The notes under the pieces were generated by a model. That model made no database searches. It saw only the letters and a program-made list of their open reading frames with translations, and was not told the DNA's origin. From Gaiellaceae bacterium (GTDB lineage Bacteria; Actinomycetota; Thermoleophilia; Gaiellales; Gaiellaceae), in assembly GCA_045805985.1 (NCBI GenBank), contig JBJMKA010000015.1, positions 31,843 through 95,842 on the forward strand: 64,000 nucleotides of DNA, read 5' to 3'. Shown piece after piece: positions 1 to 29,601 of this stretch. The position numbers and the translations under genes are program-made. Numbering within the stretch: position 1 is the first letter of the stretch; each line of letters opens with the position of its first letter.

Positions 1-96
1 CGTGTCGAGACCCGCCAGCTTCAGCTTGTCCATCTCAGTCTTCGCGAACGCGTAGTCCTGCGCCTTCACGACGTCGTCGGCGGCGCCGACCATCAT
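1..96 (-). CDS. 5' end of an unidentified gene running off the window edge (MMVGAADDVVKAQDYAFAKTEMDKLKLAGLDT...)
   Basis: ATG-ATG at 96..91 on the minus strand. 30 of 32 codons end in G/C, as in confirmed genes here. The competing +strand extension 95..193 of uvrC is rich in A/T-ending codons. Confidence 0.35.
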   Translation of the reverse strand, partial: MMVGAADDVVKAQDYAFAKTEMDKLKLAGLDT

Positions 97-193
97 GAAC
101 GGGCCGCCGGCGAACGACGACGGCGCCCACACCAAAAAGACCAGCACAACCCCTAAGAGCGCCCTCACGGGTGCAGAGTACCCTGGCTCTCCG

Positions 194-2053
194 ATGGCAA
201 CGGACCGCATCGAAAGCCAGCTGAAGCGCCTCTCGACGGGGCCCGGCGTGTACATCCTGCGCGACGCGAAGGGCGACGTCCTTTACGTGGGCAAGGCGAA
301 GTCGCTCCGGCCGCGCGTGCGCTCGTACTTCCAGGCGGGCTCGAGCGACACACGCCAGGGGATCCGCCAGATGGCCTCGCGGGTGGAGGCGATCGAGACG
401 ATCGTCACTTCGAGCGAGGTCGAGGCACTGCACCTCGAGCAGAACCTCGTCAAGCGCCACCGCCCGCCGTTCAACGTGCGCCTGCGGGACGACAAGTCGT
501 TCCCCTACATCGCGGTCACTGTCGAGGACGACTTCCCGCGCGTGATGTTCACGCGCGAGCGTCACCGGCGCGGCATCGTCTACTTCGGGCCGTACGCGAA
601 CGCGAAGAAGGTGCGCGAGACGCTCGACGTGCTCAACCGCGTCTTTCGCTACCGCCCGTGCGAGGGGCCGCAGCCCGGCCGGCACAGCGGCATCCCGTGC
701 CTCGACTTCCACATCGAGCGCTGTTACGCGCCGTGTGTCGGCTACATCTCGAAGGAGGACTACCGCGACCTGATCGACCAGGTGATCGAGTTCCTCTCCG
801 GCGACGACCGGCCGATCCGCCGGCGGCTCGAGGAGCAGATGCGGGACGCGGCGGCGGAGGAGCGGTTCGAGGACGCGGCGCGTTATCGCAACCGGTTGCA
901 TGCGATCGAGCGCCTGTCTGAGCGTCAGGCTGTCGAGCGCAAGTCGATCGGGACGATCGACGTGATCGGCGTCGCGGTCTCGTCCGAGCGCGCGGCAGTG
1001 CAGGTGTTCCCGCTGCGCGACGGGCGCATGGTCGACCGCTACTCGTTCCACCTCGAAAACGCAGCGGGCGAGCCGGTCGAGGAGGTGCTTGAGCAGTTTT
1101 GCCTGGAGTACTACGGCTCGGCGCCGTCGATCCCGCCGCAGATCCTCGTGCCGCGCGGGACCGGCGACCTGACGGCGCTCGAGCTGTTCCTCTCGGAGCG
1201 CCGAGGCTCGCACGTCGAGGTGCGCGCGCCCGAGCGCGGCGAGAAGCGACGCCTGCAGGAGCTCGCGCAGCAGAACGCGCAGCTCGCGCTCGACTCGCAG
1301 ACGTTCGTGACGGAGACGAAGCGTGCGCGGCGGATGGAGTCGCTCGAGGAGCTGCGCGAAGCACTGAACCTCGAGTCGCTGCCGATCCGGATCGAGTGCT
1401 TCGACATCTCGAACATCCAGGGCCAGGAGATCGTCGGCTCGATGGTCGTGTTCGAGGATGCGGTCGCGAAGAAGGCGCACTACCGCAAGTTCACGGTGAA
1501 GGGTGTCGAGGGCCAGGACGACTTCGCGTCGATGCGCGAGGTGATCTCGCGTCGCTTCTCACGCCTCTCTGCCGATCCCGGCTCGGACGACTGGAACGAG
1601 TCATTCGCTGCAACGCCGAACCTTGTCGTGATCGACGGCGGCAAAGGCCAGCTGAGCGCGGCGCTGGCGGCGATGCAAGAGCTCGACCTGCCGCGCGTCG
1701 CGGTGATCTCGCTCGCGAAGCGCATCGAAGAGGTGTTCGTCCCCGGCCGCCCCGACCCGATCATCCTCGACCCGCGCTCGCCCGGCCTGCAGCTCCTGCA
1801 GCGGATCCGGGACGAGGCGCACCGCTTCGCCGTCACGTTCCATCGCCAGCGGCGCGACGCGGCGGCGCGCGAGTCGGTTTTCGATCAAATCGAAGGTGTC
1901 GGCCCGGCCCGGCGGCGCGCGCTGCTGCGGCACTTCGGCTCGGCCGACCGCGTGCTCGCGGCGACGGAGGAAGAGCTGGAGGGCGTCCCGGGCCTGCCGG
2001 CACGGACCGCGCGCAGCATCTACTCGCAGCTGCGCCGGACCGGCCGCGCGTAG
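194..2053 (+). CDS. uvrC: Excinuclease ABC subunit C
   Basis: ORF 95..2053. GIY-YIG N-terminus (GVYILRDAKGDVLYVGKAKSLRPRVRSYF), UvrC central region, C-terminal helix-hairpin-helix (GVGPARRRALLRHFGS). Start moved to ATG 194 on codon usage. Confidence 0.95.
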   Translation: MATDRIESQLKRLSTGPGVYILRDAKGDVLYVGKAKSLRPRVRSYFQAGSSDTRQGIRQMASRVEAIETIVTSSEVEALHLEQNLVKRHRPPFNVRLRDDKSFPYIAVTVEDDFPRVMFTRERHRRGIVYFGPYANAKKVRETLDVLNRVFRYRPCEGPQPGRHSGIPCLDFHIERCYAPCVGYISKEDYRDLIDQVIEFLSGDDRPIRRRLEEQMRDAAAEERFEDAARYRNRLHAIERLSERQAVERKSIGTIDVIGVAVSSERAAVQVFPLRDGRMVDRYSFHLENAAGEPVEEVLEQFCLEYYGSAPSIPPQILVPRGTGDLTALELFLSERRGSHVEVRAPERGEKRRLQELAQQNAQLALDSQTFVTETKRARRMESLEELREALNLESLPIRIECFDISNIQGQEIVGSMVVFEDAVAKKAHYRKFTVKGVEGQDDFASMREVISRRFSRLSADPGSDDWNESFAATPNLVVIDGGKGQLSAALAAMQELDLPRVAVISLAKRIEEVFVPGRPDPIILDPRSPGLQLLQRIRDEAHRFAVTFHRQRRDAAARESVFDQIEGVGPARRRALLRHFGSADRVLAATEEELEGVPGLPARTARSIYSQLRRTGRA

Positions 2054-24828: not shown

Positions 24829-25818
24829 AAGGTGACGCTGCGGCTCGCGGAGACGTTCACGATCTCCCGTGGCTCGGAGGACGAGGCCGAGGTGGTGCAG
24901 GTCGAGATCGCACTGAACGGCGTCACGGGATTCGGTGAAGCGGCGCCGACCGCGCATTATGACCAGACCGCGGACTCCGCGCTCGCGTGGCTGGAGCGCG
25001 TCACGCTCGGCGGCGATCCGTTCGCGCTCGACGAGATCTTCGAGAGCCTGCCGCCGGGGGAGCAAGCCGCGCGCGCCGCCGTCGATGCGGCGCTCTACGA
25101 CCTGCAGGGGAAGCTGACGGGGCGCCCCGTGTACCAGCTCCTTGGCGTGCGCCCGGTCGGTCCGCCGACGTCGTGGACGATCTGGCTCGGCGATCCGGAT
25201 GACATGGCACGCCGCACGGAGACGATCGCGGCTCGCGGCTTCAAGCGGCTGAAGCTGAAGCTCGGCGGCTTCGACGGTCTCGACGTCGAGCGCGTCAAGG
25301 CGGTGCGCTCGGCGACCGACCTACCCTTGATGTGCGACGCGAACGAAGCGTGGACGTTCGACGAAGCGCTCGAGGTGATCCCGCAGCTGGACGTCGAGTG
25401 CTGCGAGCAGCCGCTGAAGGCGGGCGACCCCGACGGGCCCGCGCTGAAGGTGCGCTCGCCGGTCCCCATCTACGTCGACGAGGACTGCGGCACGCTGGCC
25501 GACGTCGCCGCCTGTGCGGAGCGCGCGCACGGCATCAACATCAAGCTCGCGAAGTCCGGCGGGATTCGCGAAGCCGTGCGCATGACAAGCGCCGCCCGCG
25601 CGCTCGGGCTCGGCGTGATGCTCGGCTGCATGGTCGAGTCCGGGCTCGGCATCGCGGCGGGCGTGCACATCGCGAGCTTGATGGACCACGTCGACCTCGA
25701 CGGAAACCTCCTGCTCGCCGAAGACCCGTGGCCGGGCATCGAGCTCGTCGACGGTGTGCAACGTCCCCCCGATCGTCCCGGACTCGGGGTCGAAAAACAC
25801 GGTGTCCAAGGCGCGTAG
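24817..25818 (+). CDS. Enolase-superfamily dipeptide (L-Ala-D/L-Glu) epimerase / DgcA-like racemase
   Basis: Tail of ORF 24139..25818, whose N-terminus runs through the tRNA. ATG 24817. KLKLG, DANEAW, VDEDC and IKLAKSGG are typical of the MLE subgroup. Confidence 0.88.
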   Translation: MRAQKVTLRLAETFTISRGSEDEAEVVQVEIALNGVTGFGEAAPTAHYDQTADSALAWLERVTLGGDPFALDEIFESLPPGEQAARAAVDAALYDLQGKLTGRPVYQLLGVRPVGPPTSWTIWLGDPDDMARRTETIAARGFKRLKLKLGGFDGLDVERVKAVRSATDLPLMCDANEAWTFDEALEVIPQLDVECCEQPLKAGDPDGPALKVRSPVPIYVDEDCGTLADVAACAERAHGINIKLAKSGGIREAVRMTSAARALGLGVMLGCMVESGLGIAAGVHIASLMDHVDLDGNLLLAEDPWPGIELVDGVQRPPDRPGLGVEKHGVQGA

Positions 25819-26830
25819 GCGGCTATTGATCCTTGCGGAGGGATACTCCGCGGACCCGCACCACGGCAAGACGGCCCGGGGGGTGATCCGGTACCGCCCC
25901 GAGGACATCGTCGCGATCCTCGACACACAGCGCGCCGAGGGCGACACGCAGGACGGTTTTCCTGTCGTGCGCAGTGTCGAAGAAGCGTGTCAGTACGAGC
26001 CGACGATCGCTCTCGTCGGCGTCGCGACGACGGGCGGACGCTTCCCGCCGAAGTGGCGCGAGCTGCTGAAGGACGCGATCCGCGCGGGCCTGGATCTCGA
26101 GAACGGGCTGCACGAGTTCATCTCGGAGGATCCCGAGCTGGTCGAGCTCGCGCGCGGGCACGGCGTGGAGCTGCGCGACCTCCGCAAGCCGCCTCCCGGC
26201 CTGAACGTGCCGACGGGCGCGAACCTCACGCACGGTGCGAGGACCGTCCTGACCGTCGGCTCCGACTGCGCGATCGGGAAGATGACCGTCTCGCTCGAGC
26301 TCGATCGTGAAGCCCGCAGGCGCGGAATCAAGAGCGAGTTCGTCCCGACCGGCCAGACCGGAATCGCGATTGCGGGGTGGGGGATCTCCGTCGACGCGGT
26401 CGTCTCCGACTTCGTCGCGGGCGCCGCCGAGCAGCTCGTCGTCCAGGGCGCCGAGCGCGGCGCCGAGCTGCTGCTCGTCGAGGGCCAGGGATCGCTCCTC
26501 CATCCGTTCTACTCCGGCGTCACCCTCGGACTGATCCACGGCTCCGCCCCGCACGCCTATGTTCTCTGCCACAAGGCCGGCGCGCGGTTCGTCGAAGGGG
26601 ATGAGCGGTTCGTGATCCCGCCGCTCTCCGAGCTGGCCGACCTCCATGCCCGCATGAGCCTCCTCGCCAGGCCGGCCAAGGTGAGCGCGATCGCCCTCAA
26701 CACGAGTGACCTGGACGAGCCTTCGGCGCGCCGCGCGCTCGAGGAAACCGAGGCCGAGACCGGCCTCCCGGCCGACGATCCCGTCCGCTTCGGAGCCGGG
26801 AAGCTGGTGGACGCTCTTCAGAAGGAGTAG
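25802..26830 (+). CDS. DUF1611 protein (DgcN-like N-acetyltransferase family)
   Basis: ORF 25754..26830. GTG 25802 overlaps the epimerase by 17 nt. P-loop-like segment VLTVGSDCAIGKMT and DUF1611-wide similarity. Confidence 0.85.
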   Translation: MSKARRRLLILAEGYSADPHHGKTARGVIRYRPEDIVAILDTQRAEGDTQDGFPVVRSVEEACQYEPTIALVGVATTGGRFPPKWRELLKDAIRAGLDLENGLHEFISEDPELVELARGHGVELRDLRKPPPGLNVPTGANLTHGARTVLTVGSDCAIGKMTVSLELDREARRRGIKSEFVPTGQTGIAIAGWGISVDAVVSDFVAGAAEQLVVQGAERGAELLLVEGQGSLLHPFYSGVTLGLIHGSAPHAYVLCHKAGARFVEGDERFVIPPLSELADLHARMSLLARPAKVSAIALNTSDLDEPSARRALEETEAETGLPADDPVRFGAGKLVDALQKE

Positions 26831-26852
26831 GTCGGGCCGAGCGGAACGATAG

Positions 26853-26875
26853 GCCGACTGGCGGGTACAGTCGGC
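26853..26875 (+). terminator. Hairpin after the DUF1611 gene (no U-tract)
   Basis: GCCGACTG-gcgggta-CAGTCGGC, a perfect 8-bp stem. Confidence 0.35.
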
Positions 26876-26898
26876 GGCCGCGCTGCCGATAAGAGCCT

Positions 26899-26912
26899 CG
26901 AACGTTCGTTCC
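26899..26912. promoter_or_regulatory. SOS-box-like dyad upstream of the GH-like gene
   Basis: CGAAC-gttc-GTTCC, 19 nt upstream of GTG 26931. Matches GAAC-N4-GTTC. Confidence 0.45.
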
Positions 26913-26930
26913 TACCCCCTAGGAGATGCA

Positions 26931-28274
26931 GTGAAGAGAGTCCTTGCGGCTGCCGTAGCGCTCGTCGTCGTGGCACTGAGCTTCGGCGCTGCGCGCGCGG
27001 CCGCCGATGGTGTCAGGTACGGAGTGAACGACGACCAGGGCATGTTCGAGAAGGGCGCCGGGCCGTTCTTCTCGAACCTGACCGGGCTCGGCATGCGCGA
27101 CAACACCGTGACTGTGCGCTGGGACGAGACGTCCGCCGACGGTTTCGAGGTGCTCGATGCGGCCACGAACGTCTCGTTGAAGGACTTCCTGCCGGAGACC
27201 GTCGCTGCCGCGAACCTGGCCGGCGTGACGCTGACCTTCGACGTCTACCCCCGGCACTCGCTTGCCGCCGGTGCCCCAGCGGCGAACGCGGCGAAGTTCG
27301 CGGCCTGGCTGGCTCAGCTCGCCAAGGATTATCCATCCGTCAAGAGCTACGTCGTGATGAACGAATGCAACCAGCCGCTCTTCGTCAACCCGCAGTACGG
27401 CGGCGGCAACCTTGTCTCCGCCGCTGCATGCGGTGAGTTCCTCGCCGCCGGTTACCAGGCGCTGAAGTTGGTCGACCCGAGCATCTTCGTCTGGGGTCTC
27501 GGCCTCTCGCCACACGGCGCGAAGGGGGACGGACGGGATCACCGCGACTCGAGCCCCTTCGATTTCCTCTCGGCGCTCGGCACCTGGTACAAGGCCAGCA
27601 CCTACAGCGGCCAGAAGATCATGGACGGCCTCGACCTCCACCCGTACCCGATCCCCCAGTCCGTGCCGTTCGCGCAGGGGAACAGCAATGTGGGCGGCCC
27701 TGCCTACGGCGTGACGACGCTTCCGCTCGTCTATCAGGCCTTCTACAACGCCTTCAAGGGCACCGTGCAGCCGACGGTCGGCCCCGGCCGGTTGCCCGTC
27801 AGCCTCAACGAGGTTGGTATCCAGACGGTCCCCTCGGCCGGCGGATACACCGGCACGGAGACCGCCGGCTGGGACGTGAGTGGCACGACCGGCGATGAGG
27901 CCTACCAGGCCGCCTGGTACAAGCAGCTGATCGATGCGACGCAGTGCGACGCCTCGATCACGAACGTCAACATCTTCAAGCTCCTCGACCAGGCCGACCT
28001 CGGTGCCTGGCAGAGCGGCCTCTACCAGCTCGGCTGGGTGGCGAAGCAGTCGGCCGACGTCGTAAAGAACGAGATCGCTTCGGTGACGACCTGCCCAACG
28101 GGCTCGGCGAGGTTCTGGGCTCCGTCGACAGCCTCCACCGGGAAGCCAATCGCGAAGCCTGCGAAGAAGGCCGTCAAGAAACCGGTGAAGAAATCGGCGA
28201 AGAAGCCGGGGAAGACGAAGCAGGCGAGGTACGACCATTGGCTGCCCGGAACGGGGGTCCCACACGGTGCTTGA
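26931..28274 (+). CDS. Secreted TIM-barrel glycoside-hydrolase-like protein (clan GH-A signature) with a Lys-rich tail
   Basis: AGGAGA Shine-Dalgarno sequence plus GTG. Signal peptide. VMNECNQP (acid/base NE), DLHPYP, SLNEVG (nucleophile E). C-terminal KPIAKPAKKAVKKPVKKSAKKPGKTKQ. Confidence 0.65.
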   Translation: MKRVLAAAVALVVVALSFGAARAAADGVRYGVNDDQGMFEKGAGPFFSNLTGLGMRDNTVTVRWDETSADGFEVLDAATNVSLKDFLPETVAAANLAGVTLTFDVYPRHSLAAGAPAANAAKFAAWLAQLAKDYPSVKSYVVMNECNQPLFVNPQYGGGNLVSAAACGEFLAAGYQALKLVDPSIFVWGLGLSPHGAKGDGRDHRDSSPFDFLSALGTWYKASTYSGQKIMDGLDLHPYPIPQSVPFAQGNSNVGGPAYGVTTLPLVYQAFYNAFKGTVQPTVGPGRLPVSLNEVGIQTVPSAGGYTGTETAGWDVSGTTGDEAYQAAWYKQLIDATQCDASITNVNIFKLLDQADLGAWQSGLYQLGWVAKQSADVVKNEIASVTTCPTGSARFWAPSTASTGKPIAKPAKKAVKKPVKKSAKKPGKTKQARYDHWLPGTGVPHGA

Positions 28275-28315
28275 CATACGAACAGGCGTTCGCTAGCATG
28301 GCGAACACATGTTCG
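28271..28315 (+). promoter_or_regulatory. Consensus promoter with two LexA-type boxes driving the LysM gene
   Basis: TTGACA (28271-76), 17-nt spacer, TAGCAT (28294-99). Box 1 CGAACaggcGTTCG (28279-92) lies in the spacer. Box 2 CGAACacatGTTCG (28302-15) covers the ATG at 28309. Confidence 0.7.
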
Positions 28316-28548
28316 TCCGAATCTTGCTCATCGTGGGAATCGCCGTGCTGCTGTGGAGCGCCATGGCGCGCTCCTCGAACGCTCACGGCGCGAAGCAGGT
28401 GGTAACGGTTCGCGCGTACGAGACGCTCTGGTCGATCGCGCAGAAGCACTATGCGGGCGACGTCCGCGACGCGGTCTGGCAGATCGAGAAGGCGAACCAC
28501 CTGCGGAGCGCAGACGTGCGCGTCGGCCAGACCCTCGTCCTTCCCTGA
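28309..28548 (+). CDS. TM + LysM small protein (YneA/ChiZ-like candidate SOS cell-division inhibitor)
   Basis: N-terminal TM helix (ILLIVGIAVLLWSAM). LysM domain (VTVRAYETLWSIAQKHY ... VGQTLVLP). Confidence 0.85.
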   Translation: MFVRILLIVGIAVLLWSAMARSSNAHGAKQVVTVRAYETLWSIAQKHYAGDVRDAVWQIEKANHLRSADVRVGQTLVLP

Positions 28549-28574
28549 CGGTCCCGCGCCCGCTGCGGCGCTGC

Positions 28575-28597
28575 AAAAAACCGTCTCGCTGCGAGAC
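28575..28597 (-). terminator. Canonical intrinsic terminator oriented leftward (no annotated leftward gene feeds it)
   Basis: The minus strand reads GTCTCG-cag-CGAGAC-GG-TTTTTT. This is the only A6/T6 run I noticed in my manual scan of the window. Confidence 0.5.
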
Positions 28598-28608
28598 TGT
28601 GCCCTGGC

Positions 28609-29601
28609 ATGGACCTGGACATCGTCTTTCTCGGCACGTCGGCGAGTGCGCCCACTGCGCGGCGGGCGCCGATGGCGCTGCTCGTACGTCGGGGCGGCGA
28701 CCGCCTGCTCTTCGACTGCGCGGAGGGCACGCAGCGGCAGTTGATGCGCTCGGCGATCGGGTTGCCCGATCTCGAAGAGATCTTTCTCACGCACTTCCAC
28801 GCCGACCACTACCTCGGCCTGCCCGGGATGCTGAAGACGTTCTCCCTGCGTCAGCGCGAGCTCCCGCTCACGGTGTACGGCCCAGCCGGGCTGCGCGATC
28901 TCTTCAAGAGCCTGGGACGGATCATCGGCAAGCTCAGCTACCCGATCGAGCTCGAGGAGCTGCGGCCGGGGGAGGCCTTGGAGCGCGACGGCTACCGGAT
29001 CCTCGCCTTTCCGGTGCACCACGGCGTGTCTGCGGTCGGCTACGTGGTCGAAGAGGACGAGCGGCCGGGCGAGTTCGACGCCACCGCGGCGGACGCGCTC
29101 GGCATCCCGTTCGGGCCCGAGCGCGGCGCGCTGCAGCGCGGGGAGTCGGTGACCTTCGAGGACGGTCGCGTGCTCACGCCGGATGCGGTGCTCGGGCCCG
29201 CGCGTCGCGGCCGGCGCATCGTGATTCCCGGCGACACAGCGCCGGTCGAGACGGTGCGCGTGCTTGCGGAGGGCGCCGATGTGCTGGTCCACGAGGCGAC
29301 GTTCCTCGAGGACGAACGCGATCGCGCGGCCGACACGCTGCACTCGACGGCGCGCCAGGCAGCCGAGGTGGCGCGTGACGCAGACGTCCGCCTGCTCGCG
29401 CTCACGCATGTCTCACCGCGCTACTTCGGCGAAGAGCTCGTGCGCGAGGCGCGCGACGTATTTCCCGCGACCGTGGTGCCCAAGGACTTCGACGTGATCG
29501 AAGTGCCATTCGTGGAGCGGGGATCGCCCGAGTTGATCAGGCGCGGCGCGCGGCCCGAAAAGGTGTCTGACACCGTTCCGCCGGCGGACGTCGCTCTGTA
29601 G
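28609..29601 (+). CDS. rnz: Ribonuclease Z
   Basis: Metallo-beta-lactamase motif HFHADHYLG. Typical N-terminus MDLDIVFLGTSASAPT. C-terminal tail KVSDTVPPADVAL is encoded by a palindrome copy. Confidence 0.9.
   Translation: MDLDIVFLGTSASAPTARRAPMALLVRRGGDRLLFDCAEGTQRQLMRSAIGLPDLEEIFLTHFHADHYLGLPGMLKTFSLRQRELPLTVYGPAGLRDLFKSLGRIIGKLSYPIELEELRPGEALERDGYRILAFPVHHGVSAVGYVVEEDERPGEFDATAADALGIPFGPERGALQRGESVTFEDGRVLTPDAVLGPARRGRRIVIPGDTAPVETVRVLAEGADVLVHEATFLEDERDRAADTLHSTARQAAEVARDADVRLLALTHVSPRYFGEELVREARDVFPATVVPKDFDVIEVPFVERGSPELIRRGARPEKVSDTVPPADVAL

Follow-up and report, generated by a model that had tools for sequence, protein, structure and literature searches.

A LexA-motif dyad upstream of a secreted PslG-like glycosidase gene in a Gaiellaceae genome is probably a background match beside a conserved double SOS operator

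A 64,000-nt stretch of an uncultured Gaiellaceae genome (C15:31843-95842 of an assembly of 3.56 Mb, 68% G+C and 20 contigs), hereafter called the window, was analysed with respect to a GAAC-N4-GTTC dyad that stands in front of a gene for a secreted glycoside hydrolase (GH). The GH gene occupies positions 26931..28274 (GTG to TGA) on the plus strand, as do all stranded features below unless stated otherwise, and it follows a DUF1611 gene (25754-26830) after a spacer of 100 nt, in which the dyad lies. The dyad, GAACGTTCGTTC, covers 26900-26911 with a C on either side (26899-26912), and forms the core, GAAC-GTTC-GTTC, of the stretch tcGAACgttcGTTCct (26898-26913). It ends 19 nt before the GTG at 26931, and an AGGAG ribosome-binding site, read from the sequence, is located between the two at 26921..26925; a homologous GGAG(A) was found 5' of the GH start codon in the orthologues. 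Exactly four such dyads occur in the window, at 26900, 28280, 28303 and 61522. The second and third belong to a gene for a small LysM protein immediately downstream of the GH gene, and the fourth is inside an open reading frame (ORF) of 698 amino acids (aa). An initial annotation of the locus had read the 26900 dyad as an SOS box that would bring the glycanase into the SOS regulon. Its description of the locus was accurate, in that the dyad does lie 19 nt before the GTG of a signal-peptide protein and three of the four dyads of the window do fall in one locus. The results described below suggest that the 26900-26911 dyad is probably a weak match to the LexA motif, specific to this lineage and either fortuitous or very recent in origin, and not an established SOS operator, and that the DNA-damage switch of the locus is, as judged from sequence and its conservation, the double LexA operator of the neighbouring YneA-like gene.

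The LexA motif was defined from the SOS promoters of the same genome, as the initial annotation had proposed. SOS genes were identified by Pfam (LexA_DNA_bind plus Peptidase_S24, RecA, UvrA, IMS and others). Perfect boxes with an R-N-N-Y spacer were found directly 5' of lexA, recA, uvrA and imuB-dnaE2 (two boxes), and also 5' of a gene combining RNase_T, GIY-YIG and UVR domains (dnaQ/GIY-YIG), dnaB, a radical-SAM gene, a DUF5131 gene, a gene for a DinG-like helicase and the LysM gene of the window (two boxes). In addition, a one-mismatch box abuts dinB and another lies upstream of a 91-aa ORF. The lexA gene itself is on a different contig from the window (C5, the gene after the box at 201886). 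The boxes at lexA, recA and uvrA in particular indicate that this Gaiellaceae genome uses GAAC-N4-GTTC as its LexA motif. The whole genome contains 47 perfect GAAC-N4-GTTC dyads, about 35 of which are away from recognisable SOS genes, or some 0.6 dyads in 64 kb.

A 20-nt palindromised weight matrix was built from 12 sites of this genome and used for a whole-genome scan. Eleven operators scored 22.2-27.6 bits (20.3-26.5 in leave-one-out scoring), the dinB box 21.4 bits and the box of the small 91-aa ORF 19.5 bits, and all 13 of these clear operators (19.5-27.6 bits) are located at the 5' ends of genes. The site in front of the GH gene scored 15.5 bits and ranked 25th in the genome, which places it below the range of the bona fide operators with a gap of 4-12 bits. 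The flanks and the GTTC spacer account for the lower score. This spacer has T as its third base, equivalent to A as the second base of the opposite strand, and such a base occurs in none of the 12 own-genome operators and in none of 61 LysM boxes of relatives. Of eleven other sites with scores of 15.5-17.7 bits, only two are non-coding, namely the DinG-like site and a site 273 nt 5' of a secreted-protein gene; eight are deep within ORFs and one is within the region coding for a sigma factor. Background dyads near gene starts include C6:163933, C13:68106 and C19:27467. About three background dyads are expected at gene starts, and the GH site can be one of them.

To compare the site across relatives, GH loci were collected from 24 genomes of the same genus in GTDB, from exact-protein look-ups and from a protein-guided metagenome scan. 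The gene order is kept, namely MR_MLE epimerase, DUF1611, GH, LysM, RNase Z (rnz) and M29 peptidase, with a Metallophos gene between GH and LysM in some relatives. Among 60 loci with a readable GH 5' region, a perfect box between -200 and +30 of the GH gene was present only in the window (0/59 others). Two perfect boxes were found at the LysM gene in 30 of the 31 loci in which its start was reached, and one box in the remaining locus. Most of the GH spacers are no longer alignable. The spacer of one relative, L031, whose GH protein shares 85% aa identity, can be aligned with that of the window, and its homologous site is CAACGTTCGTTC, in which GAAC is replaced by CAAC, a mismatch in the core. 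On the other hand, the LysM promoter on the 1.6-kb L031 contig is identical to that of the window from the -35 hexamer through box 2. Selection is visibly acting on the LysM operator and not on the GH site. The placement of the glycanase in the SOS regulon was therefore not borne out, since the site scores 15.5 bits against at least 19.5 bits for the 13 promoter-located operators, has an atypical spacer base and is missing from all 59 other GH 5' regions, its core being broken in L031 while the LysM operator there is unchanged.

The LysM gene has the features of an SOS promoter. A consensus scan found TTGACA-17-TAGCAT at 28271..28299 (10 of 12 matches, with 0.1 expected in shuffles). The conserved box 1, acGAACaggcGTTCgc (28280..28291, 22.4 bits), lies in the promoter spacer, and box 2, gcGAACacatGTTCgt (28303..28314, 24.4 bits), spans both the ATG at 28309 and the predicted start of transcription; its ACAT spacer occurs 28 times among the loci. 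Together with the two perfect boxes retained in nearly all relatives, this upholds the downstream pair as a real operator. The stop codon of the GH gene (TGA, 28272-28274) is inside the -35 hexamer (TTGACA, 28271-28276), so that the 3' end of the GH ORF overlaps with the SOS promoter, and the same arrangement is present in L031. The gene (28309..28548) encodes a protein of 79 aa with a single transmembrane helix and a LysM domain (Pfam, 1.1e-9), a YneA-like candidate SOS division inhibitor. Its best NCBIfam match is YneA (1.8e-10, profile positions 7-85 of 87), with 40.6 bits, below the curated cut-off of 60. In some of the relatives, a gene for a 169-aa Metallophos_2 phosphoesterase is inserted between GH and LysM (L033, 3999-4508; L034, 3424-3933), and the double LexA box is still directly 5' of LysM.

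YneA of Bacillus subtilis and ChiZ (Rv2719c) of Mycobacterium tuberculosis are SOS-induced division inhibitors and, like the 79-aa ORF, small transmembrane LysM proteins encoded behind LexA-controlled promoters, and mycobacterial ChiZ has reportedly been described as a damage-induced cell-wall hydrolase with LysM. The 79-aa ORF differs from them in falling below the YneA equivalog cut-off, in not being divergent from lexA, and in having a double operator and probably a leaderless mRNA. YneA is an SOS-induced LysM division inhibitor (PMC13396833), and the neighbouring operator with its YneA-like gene follows a known design (YneA, PMC13396833; SosA, PMC6851548). The initial annotation knew of no SOS regulon with a damage-inducible secreted glycanase; for damage-inducible envelope proteins, YneA provides a precedent (PMC13396833).

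The clustering of dyads had been used as an argument for the GH site, with the comment that well under one dyad would be expected by chance in the window. This estimate was somewhat optimistic, since shuffles of the window gave 0.90 +/- 0.99 dyads and the genome background is about 0.6 per 64 kb; four dyads were reached in 1 of 100 shuffles. Because about 35 non-SOS dyads are distributed over the genome at this density, one extra dyad per window is to be expected. The clustering argument itself fails, as it counts one bona fide double operator as two independent events: the cluster is the genuine double operator at 28280/28303 plus one background dyad. From these counts, with about 34 background dyads and about 11 operators, our own arithmetic puts at roughly 0.3 the probability of finding a background dyad no more than 1.5 kb from an operator. 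What makes the locus look special is its real double operator.

We then considered how the GH gene might be transcribed. A consensus promoter scan of 26700-26930 found no sigma-70-like promoter for the GH gene. A hairpin, GCCGACTG-N7-CAGTCGGC, was read from the sequence at 26853..26875, 3' of the DUF1611 stop codon, and is conserved in L031. It is possibly a terminator without a U-tract, in which case only about 55 nt would be left for a promoter of the GH gene itself. The region 26843-26875 and the loci L002, L003 and L036-L044 share a motif after the DUF1611 stop (GAAcgATAGG, GAATAGGAC or GAAGATGGG), followed by a G+C-rich hairpin. This shared arrangement may function in termination or belong to the promoter of the GH gene. 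A metagenome scan for the hairpin common to the window and L031 gave no matches. Folding of the GH leader and of the whole spacer as RNA was no better than that of shuffles, and an Rfam scan of 26750-28650 found no family at E <= 1; a riboswitch or attenuator was dropped as an explanation on these two grounds. Transcription of the GH gene would begin either at a promoter within the final ~55 nt of the spacer or further upstream, with read-through. Since the dyad is only 19 nt before the start codon, it would be downstream of any promoter in the spacer, and under both alternatives it would lie downstream of the promoter.

The product of the GH gene is a 447-aa secreted protein with a signal peptide (residues ~1-25), a TIM barrel (~27-400) and a disordered tail (402-447). 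The N-terminus, MKRVLAAAVALVVVALSFGAARA|AADG, read by eye, resembles a Sec signal peptide and agrees with the secretion proposed in the initial annotation. No family of Pfam or NCBIfam matched the protein, including GH39 and GH5. There are 593 homologues, and those with names are all proteins of 'Gaiellaceae bacterium' metagenome-assembled genomes. The family was found in all 24 sampled genomes of the genus, each with 2-7 reported matches (a number of matches and not of copies), and in none of the 16 genomes sampled from the order's other families.

An AlphaFold (AF2) model based on 34 homologues had a mean predicted local distance difference test (pLDDT) score of 83 and a predicted template modelling (pTM) score of 0.81, and showed an eight-fold beta/alpha barrel with alternating strands and helices. 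A fold search of the PDB returned 519 matches at E <= 0.001, headed by chains of PslG (9g17 and 5bx9, E 2e-13 to 2e-12) with template modelling scores (TM-scores) of 0.52-0.57 and 19-20% identity, followed by enzymes of GH5_18, GH10, GH39, GH53 and GH1. The best 50 of the 519 matches are all TIM barrels and almost all clan GH-A glycosidases, the others being engineered Kemp eliminases. PslG was also the sole sequence-level match in the PDB (E 0.025 in the single-sequence search and 0.11 in the profile search). N144-E145, H237-P238-Y239 and N293-E294-x-G296 are invariant in the 34 homologues. E145 (codon 27363..27365, motif VVMNEC) comes after the strand 139-142 (beta-4) and is predicted to act as acid/base; its counterpart in the alignment is the NE of the WNEPN motif of PslG, whose Glu we take to be the acid/base E165. 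E294 (codon 27810..27812, motif SLNEVG) is in the strand 290-295 at the end of beta-7 and is the predicted nucleophile. H237-P-Y239 comes after strand 6 in the model. We infer the catalytic roles of E145 and E294 from the topology of clan GH-A. The clan GH-A landmarks noted in the initial annotation (NE, HPY and NEVG) were thus supported by their invariance, the model and the fold matches, and the enzyme is best described from the model as a PslG-like member of clan GH-A outside the curated Pfam and NCBIfam families. C146, C167, C339 and C388 are also invariant in the 34 homologues, C146 directly following the catalytic Glu (NEC), and these four Cys residues likely form two extracytoplasmic disulfides.

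PslG of Pseudomonas aeruginosa is a GH39-type endoglycosidase of the Psl exopolysaccharide pathway (5bx9, 4zn2, 9g17) with the same fold and an aligned NE acid/base motif, and the GH protein would likewise work on a polysaccharide outside the cytoplasm. The architecture of PslG and GH39 enzymes includes a C-terminal beta-sandwich domain. Apart from its low identity to PslG, the GH protein lacks this domain in the model, being disordered after the helix 373-383 and carrying a Lys-rich tail instead, and its gene is outside any recognisable polysaccharide-synthesis operon. The four paralogues in the genome likewise have a context without a polysaccharide-synthesis cluster and gave no clue to the substrate. 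Two tandem GH paralogues with VGNEPN and HPY/HVY motifs were noticed on the minus strand at C15:29534-32097, the end of which reaches window positions 1-255. They adjoin uvrC (window ~95-2053, plus strand), the maximal ORFs overlapping at their 5' ends, and no LexA box was seen at these paralogues.

The tail includes a Lys-rich low-complexity segment, KPIAKPAKKAVKKPVKKSAKKPGKTKQ (28143..28223, residues 405-431), that is predicted to be disordered, with pLDDT below 50 from residue 402 on in the model. At least 20% Lys in the last 40 residues was found in 78 of 114 homologues, the composition being kept and the sequence not. The Lys-rich tail reported in the initial annotation is therefore a feature of the family, and its composition can fairly be called 'histone-like'. 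The idea that the Lys codons serve the LysM promoter as an AT-rich upstream element was also considered and rejected, as the tail persists with a Metallophos gene between GH and LysM. The tail is a feature of the protein, since it is kept in P0012/L033, in which a further gene lies between GH and the LysM promoter. PAKK-like C-terminal low-complexity repeats are shared with the Lys/Ala/Pro-rich tails of mycobacterial HBHA and HupB/Hlp, and the tail of HBHA, which mediates binding of this surface protein to polyanions, appears to be the nearest analogue in function. Unlike those tails, that of the GH protein follows a secreted glycosidase barrel and is conserved in composition only.

Taken together, the gene product would be a Sec-exported retaining glycosidase of clan GH-A whose (beta/alpha)8 barrel most closely resembles that of PslG, an endoglycosidase acting on exopolysaccharide; E145 would act as acid/base and E294 as nucleophile. 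The most likely role of the tail, which is disordered, polycationic and rich in Lys, Pro and Ala, is to keep the enzyme attached to anionic polymers of the envelope or matrix, and the substrate may be a surface or matrix glycan made by the cell itself. The glycosidase would be expressed independently of LexA, the dyad being background.

Several points weigh against reading the dyad as background. The site has a perfect core, and its left arm, TCGAAC, agrees with the complete actinobacterial half-site. The right arm, GTTCC, is also that of the recA operator of this genome. The site is intergenic, between any possible promoter and the ribosome-binding site, which is a workable position for a repressor. 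LexA of Streptomyces venezuelae binds well over 100 sites with graded affinities and a consensus of tCGAAC-N4-GNNCGa, and tolerates a degenerate right arm (PMC9380542); given such permissiveness, measurable binding of LexA to the GH site is plausible. Moreover, the base-by-base comparison of the spacer rests on one relative, L031, and the change between GAAC and CAAC may have had either direction. Finally, peripheral members of SOS regulons turn over fast, and the non-conservation of the site is compatible with a function in this strain.

The main alternative is that the dyad is a functional, low-affinity and strain-specific LexA operator acquired in this lineage, which would keep the glycanase partly repressed and allow its early or weak induction on DNA damage together with the adjacent YneA-like gene, coupling the remodelling of envelope or matrix glycans to the division block. 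In its favour, the perfect core with the TCGAAC arm stands in intergenic DNA close to the start codon, the LexA of this organism uses the very same motif, the recA operator has the same right arm, and actinobacterial LexA binding is permissive and graded (PMC9380542). The site is also the second-best non-canonical dyad near a gene start, after that of the dinG-like gene, and an SOS-induced LysM envelope protein provides a precedent (PMC13396833). Compared with known LexA operators of the Gram-positive/actinobacterial type (Cheo box CGAAC-N4-GTTCG; tCGAAC-N4-GNNCGa in S. venezuelae, PMC9380542), the GH site has the same 12-bp core, the TCGAAC left half-site and a position near the translation start, but it has a lower score, an atypical central spacer base, no overlap with a recognisable promoter and no conservation. 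The score is under those of all 13 clear operators by the gap given above, no recognisable promoter is there to be occluded, the box is absent from every other GH 5' region examined and broken in L031 beside an invariant neighbouring operator, and the background dyads expected at gene starts suffice to account for the site. We therefore regard a functional operator as unlikely. The fuller proposal, that a secreted PslG-like glycanase tethered to the surface has recently come under LexA control so that damage induces a YneA-like division block and remodelling of an envelope or matrix glycan from two adjacent promoters, seems more doubtful still; if true, it would be an SOS output not described so far. 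Recognition of the palindrome or the AACGTT core by some other regulator, with the GAAC-N4-GTTC match being incidental, is very improbable: the first ten bases of the dyad site, CGAACGTTCG (26899-26908), do form a perfect palindrome, and AACGTTCG is found again just 5' of the start codon in L003, L043 and L044, which form a second group of orthologues, but CGAACGTTCG has 7 copies in the genome against about 3.6 expected, a count that by itself gives no sign of a regulon, the palindrome is broken in L031, and the AACGTT near the start in many orthologues is made of the spacer and the TTG start codon (ggcaacgTTG). This last pattern suggests a way for an AACGTT sequence to arise without operator function. 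A background match remains the preferred interpretation of the GH site.

The genome scan also drew attention to genes outside the window. A LexA box, ataGAACgtctGTTCgta (24.4 bits), is located at C5:178967 just 5' of the replicative helicase gene dnaB, an unexpected member of an SOS regulon. Boxes are also present at C13:273920, C13:182882 and C8:213861, 5' of the DUF5131 (phage Gp37/Gp68-like) gene, the radical-SAM (SplB-like) gene and the unannotated 91-aa ORF, respectively, and these three are candidate peripheral SOS genes of the genus.

The evidence points to ordinary motif noise beside a genuine, well-conserved SOS operator, and the case cautions that a perfect core match and local clustering are insufficient for assigning a gene to a regulon. 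If the box did work, the SOS response would be linked to extracellular glycan remodelling in a poorly known lineage of soil actinobacteria. The analysis also provides a first computational outline of the LexA regulon for this uncultured genus. Of modest interest in their own right are the conserved YneA-like gene and a Gaiellaceae-restricted glycoside hydrolase family that has no Pfam model and appears to combine a PslG-like fold with a selected polycationic tail.

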